In this document: positions 49,036 through 64,000 of the stretch, in pieces
How positions within the stretch are numbered: position 1 is the first letter of the stretch
Layout of the letters: each line of letters opens with the position of its first letter
DNA from: Alphaproteobacteria bacterium
Lineage (GTDB): Bacteria; Pseudomonadota; Alphaproteobacteria; SP197
Reading direction: 5' to 3'
DNA: 64,000 nt
Assembly (NCBI GenBank): GCA_964291265.2
Contig: OZ219747.1
Span: 3,712,001-3,776,000, forward strand
Notes under the pieces: model-generated
Databases searched by the model: none
What the model was told of the DNA's origin: nothing
Seen by the model: the letters and a program-made list of their open reading frames with translations, nothing else
Position numbers and translations under genes: made by a program

Positions 49036-50954
49036 GTCGCGGTAGGGATGCGCATTGCTGCGCACCCCCCGCACAGATCCGGACATGGACGTTAATCCAT
49101 CCGGCTCCTACCTCGGGTGCTTGACGGTAAACCGCTGGTCCGGCCATGGGTGGCGGATGGAGACGCGCGGCCAAAGAAGCTCGGTCATGCGCTCCAATCG
49201 CTTCCAGTCAAAGCAGTGGCGCTGGGAGCGGCGGCGGATCGCTCGCAGCCATAGGCGTTGCAGCCTTTGGCGGAACGTGCGCAGCCATCGGGTCGACCCC
49301 GGAACGGCGAAGTAGTTGGACCAGCCATTGACAACTCGCCCAAGCCACATGCCGACCTCCCATATGTCGTGATGCCGTCGATTGCGAAGCACCTCCTCGA
49401 TGCGCGCCAGGGTCCTTGCGACCCGTTTTGCGACCGGCTTGCGACCAAGCCTGAAGCGTCCTCTCCGGGTCTCCGTGCAGAAGTGCGTGAAGCCCAGGAA
49501 GTCGAACGTCTCCGGCCTGCCCGCCCCGCGAGATCGCCGGTTCGCCTTGGCAAACCGTCCAAACTCAACGAGACGGGTCTTGTCCGGGTGAAGGGTGAGA
49601 CCAAAGCGGTCCAGCCTCTCCCGAACGTCGCGAAGGTATGTCTCCGCATCCCGCTTATGCTGGAACCCGACCACAATATCGTCCGCGTAGCGGACAATGA
49701 TCGCTTTACCGTTCGGAACCTTCGGACGCCATGCCTTGTGAAACCACAGATCGAGCACGTAGTGCAGAAACACGTTCGCCAGGCAGGGGCTGACAATGGC
49801 GCCCTGAGGCGTGCCCGCACCGGTGTCGCTCCATGATCCGTCGGTCATGACGCCAGCGTTCAGCCACTTGCGGATCAGACGGATCACCCGCCTGTCGCCA
49901 ATGCGATGCTCCAGGAACTTGATCAACCAATCCCTCGGGATTGTGTCGAAGTACCCCTGAATGTCCGCGTCGACTATCCAGTTGACCTTGCGCCGCTCGA
50001 TCCCGAACGCCAGGGCGTCGAGAGCGTCATGCGCCCCTCGGCCCGGTCGGAACCCGTAGCTGAAGCCAAGGAACTCCACCTCATAAATCGGTGTCAGGAT
50101 CACATCCACAACCGCCTTCTGGACGATCTTGTCCTCCAGTGCGGCAATCCCGAGCGGTCGTGTCCCGCCGTCCGGCTTGGGTATCTCAACCCGCCGAACC
50201 GGCGGCGCCCGGTACGCTCCCCCACGATGCAGGCGCGAGTGCAGATCAAGCAAGCGCTCGTCCAGACCCTCGCCATACGCCGCCCACGTCACGCCGTCGA
50301 CACCTGCCGAGGCTTCCTTCTTCAAACCGAAGTAGGCCGCCCGGAGCGCGTCCGGCGTAATGTGATGGAAGAGTGCAGTGAGACGCTCCTTCGGGTTCCT
50401 CTCTGCAGCTTCCCGTATCCGGTCCGCCGCCTGTGGCACACTTGCCCGACACTGCGTTCGGTGCGTGCTTTGGCGTCCCGGATTCCCCTTGGTTGAGGCC
50501 CTTTCCTCCAGCGACTCCGCAGAAGCTGACGCTCCCTTGTTCGCCGCCTTCACCGGTCTTACGGCCCCATCCGACTTCTTCAAACCGTTCCTCATAGGCT
50601 TCGGCTTTCTCCTTTCCCTACACGGTCCCGCCACGACAGGCGGGATAGTTCGAAGACCTCCCAGGGTCCCAACAGAAGGCGTGCGGACGTGCATGGGTTC
50701 TCCGACACCGCGGGGCTCGCCGACATCTCACCAAATCGATGCCTGCGATGTTGCCTTCGACCGATGCGAAAGCCTCGGCACCCCGAACAACGGACTTTTC
50801 GGTGCTCATTAGCCCTGCCCATCCGTACCGCTACCGACGCTTCGCCTGCCCCCTCGCGGGAACCGACGCACGGCTCGCGGAGAAACGTGGTTTGGTTACT
50901 CCTTCGTTTCAGGGGACTTTCACCCCCTACCTTCCGCCAGTTCGCCTGGCACAC
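49036..50954 (-). mobile_element. Group II intron (IIB-like, RT-encoding), 1919 nt
   Basis: 5' GUGUGCC, 3' ...CCGCGAC; DV GAGCCGGAUG...CAUGUCCGGAUC. EBS1 CGCAUC (50763-50768) pairs with exon GAUGCG; EBS2 AGUCC (50792-50796) pairs with GGACU. Confidence 0.93.
49108..50595 (-). CDS. ltrA: Group II intron reverse transcriptase/maturase (no endonuclease domain)
   Basis: AGVDG, IPKPDGGTRPLGI, SYGFRPGR, DADIQGYFD, GTPQG, RYADD, FDFLGF; ends after the maturase X domain. Confidence 0.95.
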   Translation of the reverse strand: MRNGLKKSDGAVRPVKAANKGASASAESLEERASTKGNPGRQSTHRTQCRASVPQAADRIREAAERNPKERLTALFHHITPDALRAAYFGLKKEASAGVDGVTWAAYGEGLDERLLDLHSRLHRGGAYRAPPVRRVEIPKPDGGTRPLGIAALEDKIVQKAVVDVILTPIYEVEFLGFSYGFRPGRGAHDALDALAFGIERRKVNWIVDADIQGYFDTIPRDWLIKFLEHRIGDRRVIRLIRKWLNAGVMTDGSWSDTGAGTPQGAIVSPCLANVFLHYVLDLWFHKAWRPKVPNGKAIIVRYADDIVVGFQHKRDAETYLRDVRERLDRFGLTLHPDKTRLVEFGRFAKANRRSRGAGRPETFDFLGFTHFCTETRRGRFRLGRKPVAKRVARTLARIEEVLRNRRHHDIWEVGMWLGRVVNGWSNYFAVPGSTRWLRTFRQRLQRLWLRAIRRRSQRHCFDWKRLERMTELLWPRVSIRHPWPDQRFTVKHPR

Positions 50955-51778
50955 CGCATCCAGTCCCTCAAGGCCTCGGGGCGCTCGCAGAAGGCCTGGC
51001 TGTGGACCGCGGTCAGCGCCGACTCCGTCTTCTTCCTTATCGACCCGTCACGCAGCACCCGGGTGGCCATGGTGCTGTTCGCCTCCACCGAAGGCACCGT
51101 CTTCCTTGTCTGCGATCGCTACGCGGTCTACAGGAAACTGGAGCGTGAGCTTGATGGCAAGGTGATCCTCTGCCTTTGCTGGGCGCACTCCAGGCGCGAT
51201 GTGATCGAGGCTGCGGCAGGCCAAGAGGGGCTGGAAGAGTGGTGCGACAAGTGGCTCGACAGGATCGCGCTGATCTACACACTGAATGGGCAACGGCTGA
51301 AGCACTACGATCCCGCACGCAAGCGTCAGTCAGCGAGGTTCAATGCCCTGCAGAAGGACCTTCGTGCGGCTGTCGAGGCGCTGTTCAGGCAGGCTCAGGA
51401 GGAACTCGACGCCTTGCCCGAGGGTGCACGCGAAGCGAAGCCCTTGCGTTCCCTGATCCGTCACCGCGAGGGACTGTGCGTCTTTGTCGACCATCCCCAG
51501 GTGCCCATGGACAACAACTTTGCCGAGAGAACCCTCCGGGGTGCGGTGACCGCGAGAAAGCTGAGCTTCGGCTCCGACAGCGAGGAAGGCGCCGCCTTCA
51601 CCGCCATCATGTACTCGGTCATCGGCACCCTTGCCATGAACAACATCAATGTTCGGCGCTGGCTTCATGAGTGGCTTGAGGCCTGCGCGCAGAACGGCGG
51701 CAAGCCGCCGGATGACCTCGACCCGTGGCTGCCATGGTCGATGACCCCGGAGCGTCGAAGGGACCTCATGGAACCGGG

Positions 51779-52126: not shown

Positions 52127-52532
52127 ATATCACCAACAATCACTGCGCGACCGAACGCTTACAAACCGATTGAGCGTGGAAGGCTGATGTTGTAGGTGAT
52201 GTAGGTGACGGTCCCGCGCGTGACCTTGCCGATGACGGTAGCTTGGAGAAAACCCCTCGCTCCCGGCGTGCCACAAGACCGCCCACGGCACCGGAGCAGC
52301 TTGGGCGCTGTGGCCATTTCCCGACGGGCTACCCAAGCACGATCTCACCAACTGGACCGCCATTGATGACTGGCCCGATCCCGTGCCGTTTGCGGAGGCC
52401 GAGATCGATGGTGTTCGAGCGATGGTTTGGCGACCTGTTCGATGAACTGTTCGACTCGGATTTCTGAGTGTCTCTGTGCCGGGGCCGGAGTCAGGCTTGC
52501 AAATGGTACCACAAATTGATACTGGACACTCC

Positions 52533-52787
52533 ATGAGAAAGCGCCATAGAGCCACGCTGGAACTGATCTTTGTCCGCCCGGTCAGCGGCTCAATCCGCTG
52601 GACCGACATCGAGGCGCTGTTTGCCGCTCTCGGGGCAGAAATCAGCGAACGGGAAGGTTCGCGAATAGGCGTGTTCCTGTTTGGCGAAGTGCGCGTCTTT
52701 CACCGTCCGCATCCGTCACCGGATACGGACAAGGGCGCGGTTGCCAGTATTCGCAAGTGGCTGGAAGAACACGGAGTGAAGCCATGA
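52533..52787 (+). CDS. hicA: HicA toxin
   Basis: IRWTDIEALF..LG..I.EREGSR, FHRPHP. Confidence 0.9.
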   Translation: MRKRHRATLELIFVRPVSGSIRWTDIEALFAALGAEISEREGSRIGVFLFGEVRVFHRPHPSPDTDKGAVASIRKWLEEHGVKP

Positions 52788-53134
52788 TCAATGTGATCGA
52801 GATCGATGGGGAGAAGGCGGTCGTTACCTTTGACTCGGACATTCAGATGCTGCGCGGCGAGTTTATCGGGCTGAATGGCGGGGCCGACTTCTATGCCGAG
52901 AGTGTCCACGATCTGATCGAGGAAGGCCGGAAATCGCTGGCGGTCTATCTGGAGATGTGTCGGGAAAAGGGCATCGAACCGGGCCGGAAATTTTCCGGGA
53001 AGTTCAATGTCCGCCTCGATCCTTCCGATCATGCCGCAGCAGTCATTGCAGCCGCCGCAGCGGGCAAGAGCCTGAATGAATGGGTCGTCGGGGCGATCAG
53101 GGAAGCCGCCGAGAGTGGCAACCAGGCGGCTTGA
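52784..53134 (+). CDS. hicB: HicB antitoxin
   Basis: ADFYAESV..L, YLEMC, FSGKFNVRL, GKSLNEWV. Confidence 0.9.
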   Translation: MINVIEIDGEKAVVTFDSDIQMLRGEFIGLNGGADFYAESVHDLIEEGRKSLAVYLEMCREKGIEPGRKFSGKFNVRLDPSDHAAAVIAAAAAGKSLNEWVVGAIREAAESGNQAA

Positions 53135-53417: not shown

Positions 53418-54010
53418 GGGCGTGAGTCTGGCATGGCGATGTTGTGATCGCTCGGCTGATCCCGTTTATGCGGCGCGCTTGGGGGCGTAGCCGGGACAGT
53501 TGTTGTCGTTGGCCGGGGTATCGGCCTTGCCCATGAGGGCATTCCATGCGCGGTCGAAGCGTCCGGATTTGATGAGGGCGCGTACGGTGAGGACGGCCTG
53601 GCCGCCGTGGATGCGCCATCGCATGCCGGAGCGCTTCATTCAACCGTGTGACGAGTATTTTGTTGGCGGCCTCGACGACGCCCGAGCCGATGGCGACGCC
53701 GCGGTCGCTGAGGTGGCGGTATCGCATGCGCTTGCGGTGCTTGCGGAAGAAGGCGAGTTCGCGCTCGACGGCGTTGCGCGCGGCGCGGTTGCTGCCTGCC
53801 TTGTCGCGCAGATAGCGCAGCGCCCTTATGACCCTGGCGCTGCCATGCGGATCGTGTCGCAGGGTATGGCGACAAGTCTCGAACCAGTTGGGATCGACGG
53901 CATGGTCGGAGGCTGTGCGGAGATGCTCGCAGGCATGCCGGAAGTCGACGGCTTGCGCTTCGGGCGAGAGGCTCTCCAGGAAGGTCCGGTTGTCGGGGGC
54001 GCCGTCGGCT
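53418..54010 (-). pseudogene. ISKra4/ISLre2-like transposase remnant
   Basis: MRYRHL...IGSGVVEAANKILV; end GGGCGTGAG; frameshifts. Confidence 0.72.
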
Positions 54011-54232
54011 GTACCTGTCGCTCGGGCGGCGCATCATGTGAAGCGGAGCCATCTGTACCCCGTGACGCGGTATCATATTGATCTGTTGGGCAGCGTCGGC
54101 GACGCTGGAATGGTGGCACCGCGATCTACGGGATCCTTCCCCGCCCGAACCGTGTCGGCCAAGTATGCAGTGGTATTCGTAGAGCCGAGGCGGCAAACTG
54201 TATCCGCGTTGGCAGCCAGGGATTCAGACTAT

Positions 54233-55590
<1,358 letters not shown>

Positions 55591-57210
55591 CAGGGCTTTT
55601 CTTTTGTCGTCCCGGCGCTCGGCGCACGCAGGCTGATCTTTGGGGTGGACATCCCGTTTTCGCTGTGGCAGTGTGCCGGCATGACGATGCTTGCGACCCC
55701 GGATTCCCCTATCGACCTTCGCGAGGTGACGGTGCGCCCGACCCGTGGCGCACGTGAGCACCGGCTCTGGGATCGTCTGGTCAAGGAGCATCACTACCTG
55801 CGGTTTCACGGCATCATCGGCAAGGGCCTGCGCCATGTCGCCCTGCACGGCGAGACCTGGGTGGCGCTGGTCGGCTGGCAGCCGGGCTCGTTCAAGCTTG
55901 CTGCACGCGACCGCTGGATCGGCTGGACTGCGGAGCAGCAGTTCCGCCGCCTGCATCTGATCGCGAACAATTCCCGGTTCGTCATTCTTGGCCCGAGAGG
56001 GGTGCCGAACCTGGCGTCCCGCGTGCTCGGCCTGAGCCTTCGGCGGCTGTCCGCCGACATTGAGGCTGCGCACGGATACCCAGTGTTCCTCGCGGAGACG
56101 TTCGTCGACATCAAGCGCTTCGCCGGAACCTGCTATCGCGCGGCGAACTGGCGCTCGCTGGGATTGACGCGCGGCTTCGGTCGCAAGCCCGGCGGCGCCG
56201 CACGCTTCCGTCACCACGGCCAGCCCAAGGAGATCTTCATGTACGAACTGACCGACGATGCCGCCGAGGCGCTGAGCCGGGACGCGATCCCGGAGAGCTG
56301 GAACGCGGAGCAGCACGACCAAGCCGGACCGATGGCCGCGTCCGGGCTGCGCAGTCTGTTCGCCTGCCTGGGCGAGGTGCCCGAGTGCCGCAAGCCCCGG
56401 GGCAAGCGCTATCCGCTGAGAACCATTCTCGCGATCGCCGTCGCAGCCCGGCTCGCCGGCTACCGCGGCGTGAGCGCATTCGCTCAGTTCGCCGCCCTGC
56501 TCACCCAGGAACAGCTGGCGGCGGTGGGTGCGTTCTACAGCCCGTCGAAGAAGCGCTACACGGCGCCCACGTCCACAACCTTCCACAGCATCCTCGCCAA
56601 CCTGCCGCCCGAGACCCTGGACCACGCCATCGGCCTGTGGACGGCCCAGCAGGCCGGTGCAGACACACCGCTCGCCATGGACGGCAAGGACATCCGCGGC
56701 GCCTCCAGGCAGACCAAAAACGGGCGGCGGATGATGGTCGCAGCGGTCGAGCACGGAACCGGCATGGTCCTCGGCCAGGTCGAGGTCGACGCGAAGAGCA
56801 ACGAGATCCCCGCCGTGCGGGACCTCGCCAGCAGCATCGACGTCACGGGCCGCATCGTCACCCTGGACGCGATGCACGCTCAGCACGAGACCGCGCAACG
56901 GCTTCTCGAGCGCCGCGCCGACTATGTCATCACGGCGATCAAGGATAACCAGGAGACCATGCTCGACGACCTCAAGGCCATCGACTTCAAGGGCGCGGCT
57001 TCGTTCGAGACACTCGACAAGGGGCACGGACGCATCGAGCGCCGCCGCTGTGCCGTGGTCGACATCTCCGGCGCCGAGTGGGACGGCTACGCCGCTCTCC
57101 ACGGTCACCACCAAGCCATCCGCATCGAGCGCGAACGCGAGATCTGCAAGACCAAAGAACGCAGTGTCGAGACCACCTGGTGCCTCACCTCGCTCGCTCC
57201 CGAACGCGCC

Positions 57211-58986
57211 GTCGGGTAGGCCACTGGCGCGCGTATCCGTAGGCAGAGGCTTTGTCCGTCACCGCTCTTTCGATTGCGGGCGGGGTCGCAGTTCTCCCAT
57301 AGACCACGTTTCCAGCAGTCGGGTAGGCCGCTGGCGCGCGCATCCGTAGGCAGAGGCTTTGTCCGGCACCGCTCTTTCGATTGCGGGCGGGGTCGCAGAA
57401 CTACCATAGACCACGTTTCCAGCAGCCTCCCTAAAATTCCGTACGTCCGGTTTTCCCGGGTACGGCTTCAAGCATCAGGCACCCACTTGGAGTTCGGTGC
57501 GGAGCCTTCCGCCGAACACGCCATGGTCAAGGCTGACCCGACCATACCCACGGCATCTCCGAGCGTTTGCTCCGTCCTTCGACCTTGCAGTCTGTCGGTC
57601 GGTGCCGGTCTCTGAGTACCGACTTGACCTGCCGCATAAGCCACCTGAGCCCTGAGGTCCTCGCTCAGGACGGGTTGTGTTGTCCCGCCCGTCAACGCTT
57701 ACTCGACCTCATCCGCCAGTCAGGAGGACTCCGCGTCCTTTCCCAGTCCTGGTTATAGACGCGGTCCTTGACATTCAAGGGTCACTTCATCCTGTCTGTC
57801 CTCCTCACCTTCCGGCCTTTCACTGCTGTACTGTCCCGGATTGCCGTCGTCTCTACCACGGGGAACCCGATGCGTGCTCCCCAGTTCTTCCGCATCGACT
57901 CTGGCCACCAAGCTGGGGGCAGGCCCTTGGCGTTCCCAACACCCCACAAGTCAGCTTCATGTGGGAAATTTCATTTTCGAGGCTTCGTACAATCGTTCGC
58001 TTTCGCTACGGCCCTCCGGTTCGCTCGCCGCCCTGGCTGACCAGACCAACTGGACACTGCGTTCCAGCCAGCCCACAGCGGCTTCTACATCCCAGCTCGC
58101 TGGCCCAGGGTCACCCCTGTACCAGTGGGATATGCTACGGCGCCAAACTGGGAATTGCGCCGGCGGGACTTTCACCCGCAAGTACAGCAGCTAGACTCGC
58201 TGCACGCCCCCCTAAAATTCCGTACGTCCGGTTTTCCCGGGTACGGCTTCAAGCATCAGGCACCCACTTGGAGTTCGGTGCGGAGCCTTCCGCCGGACAC
58301 GCCATGGTCAAGGCTGACCCAACCATACCCACGGCATCTCCGAGCGTTTGCTCCGTCCTTCGACCTTGCAGTCTGTCGGTCGGTGCCGGTCTCTGAGTAC
58401 CGACTTGACCTGCCGCATAGGCCACCTGAGCCCTGAGGTCCTCGCTCGGGACGGGTTGTGTTGTCCCGCCCGTCAACGCTTACTCGACCTCATCCGCCAG
58501 TCAGGAGGACTCCGCGTCCTTTCCCAATCCTGGTTATAGACGCGGTCCTTGACATTCAAGGGTCACTTCATCCTGTCTGTCCTCCTCACCTTCCGGCCTT
58601 TCACTGCTGTACTGTCCCGGATTGCCGCCGTCTGTACCCCGGGGAACCCGATGCGTGCTCATCAGTTCTTCCGCATCGACTCTGGCCATCGGGCCGGATC
58701 CACGCCCTTGGCATTCCCGACCACCCCACAAATCAGCTTCGTGTGGGAGCATCATTTCGTGGCTTCATCCAATCGTTCGCTTTCGCTACGGCCCTCCGGT
58801 TTGCTCGCCGCCCTGGCTGACCGAACCGGCTGGGCACTGTGTCCCAGCCAGCCCACAACGGCTTTCTACGTCCCAGCTCGCTGGTCCAAGGTCGCCCCTG
58901 AACCAGTGGGATATGCTACGGCGCCAAACTGACAATTGCGCCGGCGGGACTTTCACCCGTAAGTACAGCAGCTAGACTCGCTGCAC
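57211..58986 (-). mobile_element. ORF-less group II intron A, copy 1 (888 nt: 58986-58206 + 57317-57211), split by intron B
   Basis: 5' GUGCAG; DV AAGCCGUACCCGGGAAAACCGGACGUACGGAAUU; extended DVI ending CCUACCCGAC. EBS1 GGAUCCG, EBS2 GAUGCU. Confidence 0.88.
57318..58205 (-). mobile_element. ORF-less group II intron B, copy 1 (888 nt), nested at the DV-DVI junction of A
   Basis: Complete GUGCAG...DV...CCUACCCGAC unit. EBS1 GCCCCC and EBS2 GAAAUU pair with the flanking intron A sequence. Confidence 0.88.
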
Positions 58987-60762
58987 GTCGGGTAGGCCAC
59001 TGGCGCGCGCATCCGTAGGCAGAGGCTTTGTCCGTCACCGCTCTTTCGATTGCGGGCGGGGTCGCAGTTCTCCCATAGACCACGTTTCCAGCAGTCGGGT
59101 AGGCCGCTGGCGCGCGCATCCGTAGGCAGAGGCTTTGTCCGGCACCGCTCTTTCGATTGCGGGCGGGGTCGCAGAACTACCATAGACCACGTTTCCAGCA
59201 GCCTCCCTAAAATTCCGTACGTCCGGTTTTCCCGGGTACGGCTTCAAGCATCAGGCACCCACTTGGAGTTCGGTGCGGAGCCTTCCGCCGAACACGCCAT
59301 GGTCAAGGCTGACCCGACCATACCCACGGCATCTCCGAGCGTTTGCTCCGTCCTTCGACCTTGCAGTCTGTCGGTCGGTGCCGGTCTCTGAGTACCGACT
59401 TGACCTGCCGCATAAGCCACCTGAGCCCTGAGGTCCTCGCTCAGGACGGGTTGTGTTGTCCCGCCCGTCAACGCTTACTCGACCTCATCCGCCAGTCAGG
59501 AGGACTCCGCGTCCTTTCCCAGTCCTGGTTATAGACGCGGTCCTTGACATTCAAGGGTCACTTCATCCTGTCTGTCCTCCTCACCTTCCGGCCTTTCACT
59601 GCTGTACTGTCCCGGATTGCCGTCGTCTCTACCACGGGGAACCCGATGCGTGCTCCCCAGTTCTTCCGCATCGACTCTGGCCACCAAGCTGGGGGCAGGC
59701 CCTTGGCGTTCCCAACACCCCACAAGTCAGCTTCATGTGGGAAATTTCATTTTCGAGGCTTCGTACAATCGTTCGCTTTCGCTACGGCCCTCCGGTTCGC
59801 TCGCCGCCCTGGCTGACCAGACCAACTGGACACTGCGTTCCAGCCAGCCCACAGCGGCTTCTACATCCCAGCTCGCTGGCCCAGGGTCACCCCTGTACCA
59901 GTGGGATATGCTACGGCGCCAAACTGGGAATTGCGCCGGCGGGACTTTCACCCGCAAGTACAGCAGCTAGACTCGCTGCACGCCCCCCTAAAATTCCGTA
60001 CGTCCGGTTTTCCCGGGTACGGCTTCAAGCATCAGGCACCCACTTGGAGTTCGGTGCGGAGCCTTCCGCCGGACACGCCATGGTCAAGGCTGACCCAACC
60101 ATACCCACGGCATCTCCGAGCGTTTGCTCCGTCCTTCGACCTTGCAGTCTGTCGGTCGGTGCCGGTCTCTGAGTACCGACTTGACCTGCCGCATAGGCCA
60201 CCTGAGCCCTGAGGTCCTCGCTCGGGACGGGTTGTGTTGTCCCGCCCGTCAACGCTTACTCGACCTCATCCGCCAGTCAGGAGGACTCCGCGTCCTTTCC
60301 CAATCCTGGTTATAGACGCGGTCCTTGACATTCAAGGGTCACTTCATCCTGTCTGTCCTCCTCACCTTCCGGCCTTTCACTGCTGTACTGTCCCGGATTG
60401 CCGCCGTCTGTACCCCGGGGAACCCGATGCGTGCTCATCAGTTCTTCCGCATCGACTCTGGCCATCGGGCCGGATCCACGCCCTTGGCATTCCCGACCAC
60501 CCCACAAATCAGCTTCGTGTGGGAGCATCATTTCGTGGCTTCATCCAATCGTTCGCTTTCGCTACGGCCCTCCGGTTTGCTCGCCGCCCTGGCTGACCGA
60601 ACCGGTTGGGCACTGCGTCCCAGCCAGCCCACAACGGCTTTCTACGCCCCAGCTCGCTGGTCCAAGGTCGCCCCTGAACCAGTGGGATATGCTACGGCGC
60701 CAAACTGACAATTGCGCCGGCGGGACTTTCACCCGCAAGTACAGCAGCTAGACTCGCTGCAC
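58987..60762 (-). mobile_element. ORF-less group II intron A, copy 2 (60762-59982 + 59093-58987), split by intron B
   Basis: 1776-bp tandem repeat of 57211-58986 with a few transitions; abuts the transposase 5' exon. Confidence 0.88.
59094..59981 (-). mobile_element. ORF-less group II intron B, copy 2
   Basis: Appears identical to 57318-58205 and uses the same insertion site. Confidence 0.88.
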
Positions 60763-61123
60763 GGACCCGAGATGCTTCTGGCCCTCGTGCGCGACCACTG
60801 GGTCATCGAAAATCGACTCCACTACGTACGCGACTTCACCTACGACGAGGACCGCTGCAGGGTCCATGTGCGCCATCTGCCACGCAACCTCTCCTGCCTG
60901 ACAAACGCCGCCATCGCCATCGTGCGCTGCGGCGGACATTTCGACTATATGCCCGAAGCCAACCGGCACTACGCCGCCCGCGCCCAGGACGCGCTCGACG
61001 CTATCCTCATCCCGCCCGGCGGATGAACCTTCGCTCCTGACCCCGCGCCACAAGCCGGGAACGCGCCGCCTGACGGCGCAACAGGACAGCTCTGTTCGCA
61101 CACTCGAAAAAACGTGCCTAGTA

Positions 61124-63552
61124 CTGCCCTTTAGTCATAAATCGTGCTGGACAAGATGATTCGGATGGTGCACCCTGCCCTGCATGGAAGCACACATTCC
61201 GATCAAACGTGTCCTTGAGGACCAGCTCGATCGCCTGCAGTCGATCGTCACCGAGAGCGGCGATAGTAGTCAAAACCGCCTGGCGCTGGAAGTGTGCCGG
61301 CACTTCGGCCTGCGGGACGCACGGGGACGCGAGCGGGTATCGAGCTGTGTCGTGGCCCTGAAGCAGCTGGCATCGCAGGGCAGGATCGAGGGCTTGCCGG
61401 AGCCCTCCGGTCAGCGGCGTCGGGCAACGCCCCGCCGGCTCGGCGAGGCGGTGGAGAAGCCGCGTGATGTGCCGGCGAGCGTGGCGGCGATCCAGGGTCT
61501 GCGGATCCTGCTGGTGCGCACGGATGCCGAACGGGCGCTCTGGAACGAACTGATGGCGCGGGAGCACTTTCTCGGCGCTCCCATTCTGGCCGGTCATCAG
61601 CTGCGCTATCTGGTGGATTCCGCTCACGGCTGTCTCGGCGGTTTCGGCTTTGCCGCAGCGGCGCTGAAGGTGGCGGATCGGGATGCCTGGATCGGCTGGG
61701 ATGCCGACCGGCGTCGTGCGGAGCGACACCGGGTGCTGTCGATGAGCCGGTTTCTGATCCGGGTGCCGGTTGCGAACCTTGCGTCGAAGACGCTGTCGAT
61801 GTGCCTGTCTCGCCTGGGCGCCGATGTTGCGCAGCGCTACGGGTTCCTGCCATGGCTGGTCGAGACCTATGTCGACCCGACGCGCGACGGTGCGAGCCTG
61901 CGGGCGGCGAACTGGCAGCTCGTGGGGTTCACCCGGGGCCGAGGCCGTCAGGACCGCGCGCGCGAGATGGCCGAGAGCGTCAAGGCCGTGTACATGTACG
62001 TTCTGGACCGGGACTGGCGGCACAAGCTGGGGGTGGCGGAGCCGATGCCGGCCCTGTCCCCGGGGGAGGGTCTGGACGCCTCGGCGTGGGCGCACCACGA
62101 GTTCGGGGGAGCGCCGATCGGCGACCGGCGTCTGAGTGCGCGCCTGGTGGAGATTGCACGAAGACAGGGAGAGAGTCCGATGTCGTCCTACAGCGGTCTG
62201 GCGCGCCCGGATCCTGCCGGTGTCCGGGCCTATTATCGGTTCCTGGATCAGCCGGAGACGTCGGCGGTGACCCCGGCGAACATCCTGGCGCCGCACCGTC
62301 AACGAACGGTGCAGCGGATGTGCGGCCAGCGGGTGGCGTTGTGCATTCAGGACGGGACGGACCTGAACTTCGCGACCCGTCCGGGCTGCGACGGTCTGGG
62401 CATCATCGGCACGAACCAGACGGCCTCGCAGACCCTGGGCCTGCACCTGCACGCCAGCTACGTTGTCAGCGGCGAAGGCCTGCCGCTGGGGGTGGCGCGT
62501 CTTGCCTTCGACGCTCCTCCCCGCCCCCGGGCAAAGACCGGTTCGGGCGAGGATGTCGAGATGTCCCGGCGCAAGTCGCAGCGCTGGCTCGACGGTCTCG
62601 ACGACATCGCGGACCTCGCGGCCCGGACGACCGGGGTGAAGGTCGTGTGCGTGATGGACCGGGAAGCGGACTTCTTCGAACTGTTCGACCGGTGCCGGCA
62701 GCATCGCCGTCTGTCGATGCTGGTGCGGGCTCGACATGACCGGGTTCTCAAGCGCGGGGCTGCGAAGCTGTTCACCCGACTACGTACGTCTGCCTGCCGC
62801 GGCACCATGCAGATCGACATACCCCGCCTGACGGCCCGGCCGAAGTCCTCGGGGCGCAAGAAGCAGCCCGGCCGCACTGCCCGGCGGAACGCGGTGCTGG
62901 AGTTGCGCTGGTTGTCGACCACGCTGCCGGCGACCGCTGGCTGCCCCGATGCCGCGCCCGTGGCCGTGACCGCGCTGCATCTCCTCGAGACGGCCCCGCC
63001 GGCCGGGGAAGCTCCGGTGGAATGGTTCCTGTTGACCGACCTTCCTGTGGACCACGCCGAAGCGGCCCAGGAGATCGTCGGCTGGTACGCGCTGCGCTGG
63101 CGGATCGAATGCTGGTTCCGGGTGCTGAAGTCCGGCTGCCGGGTGGAGCACCTGGCGACGCGCAAGGCCTGCCGCCTGGAACGGCAGATCACCATCCACG
63201 CCGTGATCGCCTGGCGTCTTGCCCTGATGACCCTGCTCGGGCGGGATGTGCCGACGATGAAGCCCGACTGCCTGTTCTCGGACCTGGAACTCCGCTTCCT
63301 CGGCGACTATGCCCGGCGATACCGGCTGGACCCGCCCGACACGCTGGGGGCGGCGGTGAAGCTGGTGGCGATCCTCGGCGGGTATCTGGACCGCAAGCAT
63401 GATCCGGCGCCGGGCAACCAGACGATGTGGCATGGCTATCCGCGACTGGCCACCGCTGCCCTGGCCTATGAATGCCTGCTCGAGGCCCTCGATCTGGATC
63501 CGACGTCGGAAGGACACGATCACGTCCTGCACGATTTGTGACTAATAGGTAG
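61124..63552 (+). mobile_element. IS4-family element with DUF4338-fused transposase
   Basis: IRs CTGCCCTTTAGTCATAAATCGTGC / CTACCTATTAGTCACAAATCGTGC; 8-bp TSD GCCTAGTA at 61116-61123 and 63553-63560. Confidence 0.88.
61184..63541 (+). CDS. DUF4338 (DruA-like) + IS4/Tn5-type transposase
   Basis: RDAWIGW, MSRFLI, VETYVD, RAANW; IQDGTDL, MDREAD, YALRWRIECWFRVLKSG. Paralog of 42057..44396. Confidence 0.88.
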   Translation: MEAHIPIKRVLEDQLDRLQSIVTESGDSSQNRLALEVCRHFGLRDARGRERVSSCVVALKQLASQGRIEGLPEPSGQRRRATPRRLGEAVEKPRDVPASVAAIQGLRILLVRTDAERALWNELMAREHFLGAPILAGHQLRYLVDSAHGCLGGFGFAAAALKVADRDAWIGWDADRRRAERHRVLSMSRFLIRVPVANLASKTLSMCLSRLGADVAQRYGFLPWLVETYVDPTRDGASLRAANWQLVGFTRGRGRQDRAREMAESVKAVYMYVLDRDWRHKLGVAEPMPALSPGEGLDASAWAHHEFGGAPIGDRRLSARLVEIARRQGESPMSSYSGLARPDPAGVRAYYRFLDQPETSAVTPANILAPHRQRTVQRMCGQRVALCIQDGTDLNFATRPGCDGLGIIGTNQTASQTLGLHLHASYVVSGEGLPLGVARLAFDAPPRPRAKTGSGEDVEMSRRKSQRWLDGLDDIADLAARTTGVKVVCVMDREADFFELFDRCRQHRRLSMLVRARHDRVLKRGAAKLFTRLRTSACRGTMQIDIPRLTARPKSSGRKKQPGRTARRNAVLELRWLSTTLPATAGCPDAAPVAVTALHLLETAPPAGEAPVEWFLLTDLPVDHAEAAQEIVGWYALRWRIECWFRVLKSGCRVEHLATRKACRLERQITIHAVIAWRLALMTLLGRDVPTMKPDCLFSDLELRFLGDYARRYRLDPPDTLGAAVKLVAILGGYLDRKHDPAPGNQTMWHGYPRLATAALAYECLLEALDLDPTSEGHDHVLHDL

Positions 63553-63677
63553 GCCTAGTAAGCCCTGATGCACCAGCAGTGCCCACTGAAACCAGCCCAC
63601 AGTGAACCCGGGCGCCTCAACCATGCCGGTCCCTGTCACATCAACAATCCACAGGACTGAAAAAAGAATGGTCCTGA

Positions 63678-64000
63678 CTGATGCGGGAGAGGTACGAGAT
63701 CGTGAGCGCGATGTTCCATGGTTTCGACTTCCGCAAGGACCTTGTCGGCTCGCCGCACTGGCCGGCGCCATCGAGTGGGTCCTCGCCATGCAGCAACGCG
63801 AGTCGGCCCGGGAAGCGACCGAGGACGGCAAGAAACACGCCCATCGCCGCTTCAACGACGCCGTGCTGGCGCTCTCCAGGGCCTTCGCGCTTGCGGCCGC
63901 CAGCGACGAAGCCCGGGAAATCCGCGACGAGGTGGGTTTCTTCCAGACCGTCCGTGCGGCGCTCGCCAAGACTGCGCCCGGCGCCGGCAAGTCTTCCGCG
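63678..64000 (+). pseudogene. hsdR: Type I RM HsdR C-terminal (DUF3387-like) fragment
   Basis: ERYEIVSAMFHGFDF, AGAIEWVL, LSRAFALAAASDEAREIRDEVGFFQTVRAAL. 5' part missing; frame change near 63755. Confidence 0.75.

Follow-up and report, generated by a model that had tools for sequence, protein, structure and literature searches.

Twintrons, group II introns without an open reading frame (ORF) and tandem homing are already known, and the closest described systems are compared below. Here we report a nested array of group II introns lacking an ORF within a 64,000-nt stretch of DNA from an Alphaproteobacteria bacterium (assembly GCA_964291265.2, contig OZ219747.1, positions 3,712,001 to 3,776,000), hereafter called the window. 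The array consists of two tandem introns of type A, each interrupted by an intron of the sibling type B. With a probability of about 0.62, based on sequence comparison, it is read as the product of four separate retrohomings with a reverse transcriptase (RT) acting in trans, which was most likely class E-like.

In the TeI3/TeI4 introns of Thermosynechococcus elongatus, the inner copies are identical and the outer copies have diverged (PMC2882425). These introns are ORF-less, have diversified exon-binding sites (EBS), home into a sibling and are mobilised in trans. The array shows the same pattern, with identical inner copies, diverged outer copies and an inner EBS that fits the outer site. In T. 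elongatus, however, an intron-encoded protein (IEP) is specified by the outer intron, insertion is at the start of the ORF in domain IV (DIV) and closely related driver IEPs occur; in the present array neither partner has an ORF, insertion is at the junction of domains V and VI (DV-DVI) and the genome yielded no related IEP. The Methanosarcina acetivorans arrays (PMC4424553, PMC2882425) are likewise nested, arose by repeated site-specific homing and include some ORF-less introns; to judge from the title of Dai and Zimmerly 2003, the homing there is into the ORFs of related introns, with RT-encoding relatives in the genome, in contrast to the catalytic tail of an ORF-less sibling seen here. Tandem homing through pairing of EBS3 with the first intron G was shown in E. 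coli for EcKTE56.groEL (PMC12584367), and insertion at such an exon|intron junction (...CCGAC|GTGC...) is the feature held in common. That case was experimental, with a U-G wobble and a IIB1 intron that has its own RT, whereas the present one is natural, ORF-less and has a C-G pair. C.te.I1 (PMC4424553) and the circularly permuted introns (PMC8637638) likewise lack an ORF, and for some of them there is no related IEP close by. C.te.I1 occurs as one resident intron, in contrast to the multi-copy spread of the family to which A and B belong. Each array element keeps the normal order from domain I (DI) to DVI within its own boundaries, unlike the permuted introns, which have the order DV-DVI-DI-DII-DIII and are not thought to be mobile.

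In the literature searched, from which supplements and the Simon et al. 2008 list were excluded, neither a DV-DVI landing site nor a twintron in which both siblings are ORF-less and a cognate IEP is missing was found. The A/B lineage was not found there either; the supplements of PMC8919778 and PMC4028801, which lay outside the search, could list members.

Organization of the array

The insert at 57211-60762 measures 3552 nt (2 x 1776) and reads A1[B1]-A2[B2] on the minus strand, with four group II introns of 888 nt each, none of which has an ORF (Table 1). These coordinates and intron lengths agree with those of an earlier sequence-only reading of the window, as do the GUGCAG starts, the AGC triad in DV, the AC ends and the lack of an RT ORF in all four. 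At the DNA level the introns begin with GTGCAG and end with CTACCCGAC. In sense orientation no open frame of A or B exceeds 77 codons, and no RT homology was found in either. The two 1776-nt units differ at 5 positions, every one in A, while B1 and B2 are identical; A and B are 94% identical, with 57 differing positions. B had been placed just after DV of A; it lies 7 nt inside the 5' strand of DVI, not between the two domains. The intron boundary was set independently by comparison with empty sites, and the empty-site joint was seen in contigs of sequencing runs X1 and X2.

With the insert removed, the host transposase is uninterrupted and 635 aa long, and four near-full-length copies elsewhere in the genome are 95-99% identical to this repaired ORF. 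We take it to be of ISAs1 type, a label from the sequence-only reading that agrees with the domain content. All introns are antisense to the transposase ORF, so their splicing could not restore it; the insertion point between two codons is therefore incidental, and its interpretation as a sign of working transposase-mRNA splicing was rejected. The array has no evident host benefit and one copy of the insertion sequence (IS) is inactivated. No sigma-70 promoter was found upstream of the array within 60700-64000.

Copies in the genome and probable separate homing

The genome (G000; 4.83 Mb, 2 contigs, 100% complete) contains seven A-like introns and six copies of B, so that the genome-wide search proposed with the sequence-only reading did yield further copies. 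Every B lies within an A at the same base, six of the seven A copies are filled, and no free, self-nested or tandem B was found in G000. The six B copies have 0 differences over 6 x 888 nt, whereas the A-type hosts have 13 variable sites and differ pairwise by 3-8 nt (13 versus 0 variable sites, two-sided binomial 2.4e-4). Because the A copies vary and B is invariant, B appears to have homed into each A separately, and the same numbers reject a single composite movement unless B was homogenised. With 5 differences, A1 and A2 are no closer to each other than A pairs in general (3-8 nt), which fits two arrivals. B is thus likely a hyperparasite with its sibling A as target, spreading as a parasite of A. 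The earlier description of the introns as non-autonomous, recently mobile and array-building is borne out by the identity of the six B copies, by EBS pairing with the intron-binding sites (IBS), by covariation in the family and by arrays elsewhere; what it overlooked is that B is a retargeted specialist, that the 1776-nt unit is probably not the mobile unit and that no cognate RT was found in the genome.

The seventh A lies in another copy of the same IS (C2:3658598), is 2844 nt long and lacks B; its DVI is interrupted by a DDE element some 14-20 nt downstream of the site that B occupies in other copies. As an ORF-bearing parent it was rejected, because the ORF encodes a DDE transposase, whose insertion into DVI is accompanied by a 6-bp duplication. 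This element (L018:3400-5347; G000:C2:3659399-3661346) encodes 594 aa, has inverted repeats and is presumably IS1634-like; an end of the same IS also truncates a family fragment at C2:1767668.

Six family fragments also occur in G000, and truncated copies were noted at C2:3544651-3544718, 417017-417092, 3580494-3580660, 3261256-3261485 and 710192-710235. In the first of these, the 5' exon of a site of the variant A' is joined straight to the last 68 nt of the intron, a remnant such as incomplete cDNA synthesis would be expected to leave. In the alignment of A, A' and B, 35 of 38 and 46 of 58 differences fall in the first 400 nt (DI) and the 3' halves are near-identical, which suggests recombination between these siblings; the divergence of the G002 copy is even (84 of 177 differences in the first 400 nt).

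One A[B] twintron (C2:3117383) sits in sense orientation in one repeat of a long repetitive ORF, presumably adhesin-like, of which five other repeats are empty; it is the best site at which to examine splicing in vivo. In run X4, a 742-nt contig covering window positions 57429-58209 reads as an intron of B type that has the G of A at the target position and is followed by B again, which may hint at B-in-B nesting in another sample, although at low depth and possibly as a collapsed repeat. At window positions 58984-58987, intron ends in runs X3 and X1 join flanks that are not among the seven listed G000 sites, which suggests further insertion sites in related populations. No match to B was found among PLSDB plasmids.

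Target recognition

The introns pair with their targets in the IIB manner, through EBS1-IBS1, EBS2-IBS2 and EBS3-IBS3, as supported by permutation controls in the family. EBS1 of A matches 6/6 at five of six A-type sites and 5/6 at C2:3117383, and the +1 base is G at all of them. Of the seven A/A' insertions, five have an EBS2 fit at positions -14 to -9; for the other two (C2:486719 and C2:3117383) EBS2 is out of this register and, judged by eye, fits when shifted by one base. In variant A', EBS1, EBS2 and EBS3 are all changed and match its different site.

B pairs with A through 6/6 bases of EBS1 and 6/6 of EBS2, with IBS2 at A positions 768-773 and IBS1 at 776-781; its EBS3 is G, which forms a wobble with a U partner at the A site. 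Against B's own GGAGGC, EBS1 of B1 has one mismatch. By these pairings, B is a sibling of A in which EBS1 and EBS2 have been reprogrammed to A's DV-DVI junction. Genome-wide there are seven empty fully pairing sites for B, only two of which have at least 11 of 12 Watson-Crick pairs, one of them in the B-less A; judged from pairing, the B target is almost unique to A. That B is found neither within B nor in tandem is proposed to be due to a G-to-A change in B's own site, which breaks EBS1 pairing, and to the filled site presenting G to EBS3 = G.

Table 1. Positions in the window of the array parts, their recognition elements, the host transposase and the candidate helper intron
Feature	Position	Strand	Remark
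Unrelated RT-encoding group II intron, RF02005 type	49037..50955	-	528-aa RT/maturase at 49108-50694; candidate helper
Host ISAs1-type transposase, N-terminal 548 codons	55567..57210	+	DruA-like + DDE_Tnp_1_assoc + DDE_Tnp_1
Intron A2 3' part, DVI remainder	57211..57317	-	107 nt
Intron B2, complete	57318..58205	-	888 nt
Intron A2 5' part	58206..58986	-	781 nt; whole-intron A2 versus A1, 5 differences
Intron A1 3' part, DVI remainder with predicted branch A at -7	58987..59093	-	107 nt
Intron B1, complete	59094..59981	-	888 nt; identical to all 6 genomic B copies
EBS1 of B1, GCCCCC	59691..59696	-	6/6 with GGGGGC at start of A DVI
EBS2 of B1, GAAAUU	59743..59748	-	pairs with AAUUUU, 3' strand of A DV
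Intron A1 5' part (DI-DV and first 7 nt of DVI)	59982..60762	-	781 nt
DV of A1	59988..60028	-	AGC triad, AC bulge, GAAAA pentaloop, predicted extra AA bulge opposite triad
EBS3 of A1, C	60410..60410	-	pairs with exon +1 G, equally with first G of resident intron
EBS1 of A1, GGAUCC	60472..60477	-	pairs with exon IBS1 GGGUCC at 60763-60768
EBS2 of A1, GAUGCU	60524..60529	-	pairs with exon IBS2 AGCAUC (-14..-9)
Host transposase, C-terminal 87 codons and stop	60763..61026	+	opposite strand bears IBS1/IBS2 for A

Tandem formation and replication-strand bias

With C as its EBS3 and G as its first base, A leaves a filled site that is still a complete target, which would account for the A1-A2 tandem. 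For replication direction, the origin was taken at 0.65-0.72 Mb and the terminus at 3.29 Mb, with dnaA at 0.648 Mb, the skew minimum at 0.72 Mb and the maximum at 3.29 Mb. Each of the six A copies filled by B is oriented with the fork, and the one lacking B is oriented against it. The exact 16-nt A target occurs in ten IS copies, of which eight are empty, seven against the fork and one ambiguous near the origin, and a ninth, against the fork, holds the B-less A; the window copy is the only one of the ten that is clearly with the fork, and it was hit twice. The same strand bias is seen in 15 of 16 copies of an RT-encoding intron in the genome, described below, and in 13 of 15 of its ORF-less mini-copy. 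Introns without an endonuclease prefer the lagging-strand template in published accounts (PMC8919778, PMC4424553), and the strand bias of the filled sites suggests endonuclease-free retrohoming.

Ribozyme structure and family

A check against Rfam, also proposed with the sequence-only reading, gave a divided result. DI of all four introns matches RF02003 (group-II-D1D4-4) at 65-68 bits, with a gathering score of 49, whereas the Intron_gpII-type DV/DVI model RF00029 has no match at E<=1 in the window array or at eight of eight family loci. Genome-wide (150 of 255 candidates scored), RF00029 gave 16 weak matches, all of them class E-like mini-introns. The DV features listed for A1 are the same in all four introns. 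The best predicted fold of DV has the extra AA bulge opposite the triad; the 5' bases left free by the DV search pattern agree with this register in 73-75 of 75 DVs, and a G.A/A.A internal loop may be an alternative. The array introns are not predicted to have the continuous lower DV helix of the RF00029 type. Folding predicts a bulged A at -7 in DVI of both A and B, with a 3' end of AC, and the J2/3 motif GGAUG is conserved.

With class E/F introns (IIE/IIF, g2-g5; PMC3753933, PMC3552965) the family shares RF02003-type DI, IIB-like EBS1/2/3 and the 5-nt DV loop, a IIE/IIF trait (PMC3753933). It differs from them in having no ORF in DIV at 60 sites and in starting with NYGCAG rather than GUGYG, a consensus that the GUGCAG of the array introns does not fit; no IEP in DIV that would group with class E or F/g is present. 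The RT-bearing relatives are found by RF00029, unlike the family, whose DV has the predicted extra AA bulge. A long DVI starting with GGAAAC is common to the family and to RT-bearing RF02003 introns. From their sequences, the array introns behave as non-autonomous IIB-type retrohoming introns and are not placed in class E or F. They also differ from HYER, which we take to be ORF-less IIC introns, in that the family has EBS2.

A scan of GTDB genomes with a DV pattern gave 120 loci, 80 with long flanks, and by estimate about 490 stretches that are missed by RF00029; the pattern fixes most of DV, and members with a different DV, ORF-bearing ones included, would escape it. A recent survey relies on RF00029 (PMC8919778). 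The phyla represented include Acidobacteriota, Planctomycetota, Pseudomonadota, Nitrospirota and Chloroflexota, among others. There are 73 distinct DV sites, 60 of them with at least 900 nt upstream, and none of these 60 has RT homology between the 5' end and DV. Nearby RT matches occur at 12 sites, 11 downstream and mostly in host introns; at L065, where the 5' end is unresolved, the RT match ends 1.24 kb upstream. RT-like regex matches in L045 and L049 were not borne out by tblastn. By sequence, A and B thus belong to a multi-phylum lineage without an RT in DIV and with a DV that escapes RF00029.

Assignment of 5' ends succeeded at 52 of 63 sites, and 11 were dropped. Family introns are about 750-890 nt long, with one of 970, begin with NYGCAG with the first base free (54 members) and have a short, structured DIV with conserved motifs. 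EBS1 pairs all six bases in 33 of 38 non-redundant members (5000 permutations: mean 1.6, maximum 9), EBS2 makes 4.9 versus 3.4 Watson-Crick pairs, a value reached in 0/5000 permutations, and EBS3 is paired in 23/30 (permutation mean 8.5, maximum 17). DV copies number 37 in G042 and 16 in G043. Among congeners of the present host, 8 of 22 genomes have family traces, and one has a full-length copy at 81%. A shortened member with a degenerate DV (no AGC) lies at the start of another intron's RT ORF (L007:1490-2075; G010).

Sibling-targeting in other genomes

In a Paracoccaceae locus (L030), an inner intron sits at the same base as B (+6 after DV) and has the EBS2 GAAAUU. Its two introns, inner and outer, group as sisters (100/99) outside the clade of A, A' and B (100/99), so two or more origins of such a specialist are indicated, unless a common origin has been hidden by conversion between the partners. 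The exact +6 nesting pattern gave 0 loci in JGI metagenomes, and a looser pattern gave 39, divided into 7 real nestings and 32 matches that arose by chance or lie within DVI. The real nestings comprise a +4 type on contigs L213, L225 and L228, with three levels and self-nesting, and a +21 type on L212, L216, L224 and L234. Tandems occur in L043 and L056. A wider picture, which we consider tentative and rather doubtful, is that of an old multi-phylum lineage with no RT-encoding members and a remodelled DV, which may have spread in a SINE-like manner on unrelated RTs, possibly through single-stranded DNA at forks with little protein, and which repeatedly gave rise to DV-DVI sibling specialists (three offsets, at least four origins).

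Source of the reverse transcriptase and proposed history

The only intact RT type in the genome is that of the RF02005-type intron, with 16 copies holding a whole RT domain, plus fragments. From its features this intron is presumably class E. Its copies are mostly identical, and the one in the window sits in a transposase ORF, presumably IS66-like. An ORF-less mini-derivative of about 660 nt forms a second non-autonomous family of 15 copies, 12 of them identical. No cognate RT for A/B was found in the genome by PF00078, by tblastn with 18 RT queries or by a six-frame custom HMM; there is one truncated RT of another type (C2:1339973-1340563). The B expansion is as young as that of the RT intron, and together with the single intact RT type this favours cross-class help: the class E-like RT probably served A/B in trans. 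In line with this, RT introns occur in the genus in all 8 genomes with family traces and in 2 of the other 14. In phage LPJP1, help in trans at 40-50% RNA identity has been speculated upon (PMC12350094), and reverse splicing without protein, with single-stranded DNA as the target, was shown for another intron (10.1101/2024.08.31.610620). A resemblance of A to the class E-like intron RNA was rejected, the 13-nt DI motif being all that they share.

The same homing could have been served instead by a cognate RF02003-type RT intron (class F/g-like) that was lost, carried on a transient plasmid or phage, or left unassembled. We consider this unlikely, even though DI of the family matches RF02003, as do the RT-bearing introns of G042, G044 and G045, a family hidden Markov model matches DI of these RT-bearing introns at 1e-12 to 1e-22, known ORF-less bacterial introns nearly always depend on related IEPs (PMC4424553) and the genome does hold the second, truncated RT type. 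An RF02003-type RT, whole or fragmentary, was not found in the 2-contig, 100%-complete assembly, the intron of the truncated RT has no RF02003 match, and B has spread as recently as the class E-like intron. The truncated RT belongs to a third intron type nested in a class E-like intron (L016:1360-2570; G000:C2:1339360-1340563). In G045 (L043/L142), a complete RT 88% identical to it has the same nesting and lies next to a family tandem; no relatives of the truncated RT were found in viral contigs.

In the history favoured here, with four homings and most likely a class E-like RT, A2 would first have reverse-spliced into the antisense strand of the IS, and A1 would then have landed before A2 at the filled, still complete target. 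B, resembling A with its EBS1 and EBS2 reprogrammed, would later have homed into each A. Integration would have used the single-stranded lagging-strand template at the replication fork, without an endonuclease. The IBS2/IBS1 of B overlap the 3' strand of A's DV and the 5' strand of its DVI, so that docking of B and an active A should exclude each other, and B likely splices before A. On a transcript B would leave first and A1 would leave before A2, whose true 5' exon would appear only once A1 is gone. Sequential splicing was shown for a Trichodesmium twintron (PMC4649490).

Several observations weigh against this history. As to the helper, RF02003-type RT introns are present in other host genomes (L140, L158, L164), so that a cognate helper may have been lost here, and IEPs normally co-evolve with their own ribozyme class (PMC4424553). 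A/B share only the 13-nt DI motif with the RNA of the candidate helper, and the association of RT introns with family traces in the genus is confounded by kinship and by overall mobile-element load. The strand sample for A is small (6/7, p=0.125), the IS target at C2:3658597 is occupied although against the fork, the empty one at 665507 is ambiguous in orientation, and two of five empty copies of the imperfect repeat target of C2:3117383 are in the favoured orientation. The B-less A is equally explained by the IS1634-like insertion (6 versus 1, Fisher p=0.14). Self-avoidance is not general, as the L030 inner EBS1 matches its own site and L213/L225 self-nest, and the L056 tandem lacks an EBS3 match to the first intron base. 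The contig across the A1|A2 junction falls under the 31-base bridging rule, and its run may be the source sample.

It is improbable that B homed only once or a few times and was then copied by RecA-type gene conversion, with the tandem arising by DNA duplication or recombination. The invariance of B would suit conversion, the near-identical 3' halves of A, A' and B beside their differing DI suggest recombination, and the IS in the sole B-less A cuts the homology downstream. However, to either side of the B site the A copies retain differences of their own at a distance of 84-140 nt (positions 644-691 and 865). The A1-A2 pair is no closer than other pairs of A, a link to the replication strand would not be expected from conversion, and EBS1/EBS2 of B match the site exactly. 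Movement of the 1776-nt A[B] as a composite, with the tandem made of two units or of a circular-RNA concatemer, is very improbable. It could draw on the presence of B in six of seven A copies, on predictions that unspliced RNA keeps A's upper DVI hairpin contiguous downstream of B and that the minimum free energy fold retains three basal DVI pairs beside the branch A, and on the L056 tandem formed without an EBS3 match, but it predicts equal divergence of A and B where 13 and 0 variable sites are seen, and a concatemer predicts A1=A2 where 5 sites differ. An assembly artefact doubling one A[B] unit is scarcely credible: although no contig of the sequencing runs (Logan) and no read bridges the whole array, the two units can be told apart by 5 sites, which lie without exception in A and in part carry alleles common to other loci, one 58-nt contig crosses the A1|A2 junction exactly (26+29 bases), and tandems also occur in L043 and L056.

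Significance and neighbouring genes

Three questions could be put to the test at this locus: can an RT mobilise a ribozyme outside its own class, is a DV catalytic when it has an additional bulge next to the triad, and is the order of twintron splicing enforced because the inner IBS overlaps the outer catalytic core? If true, an RT-borrowing lineage would break the rule of ribozyme-IEP co-evolution and contradict the view of bacterial ORF-less introns as rare dead ends, and the genome with its single intact RT type would be a clean test case for such borrowing. The compact 888-nt ribozyme, naturally retargeted through EBS1/2/3, could serve as a targetron scaffold.

The transposases at 55567-57210 and 61184-63541 of the window (plus strand) represent two IS families, each with an N-terminal DruA domain (PF14236, Druantia), and many other DruA-transposase fusions occur in the genome. 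Upstream on the same strand lie what we take, from the ORF list, to be a HicA/HicB-like pair (52476-53134) and a frameshifted type I restriction-modification methylase (53828-55557), the latter interrupted by the host IS.

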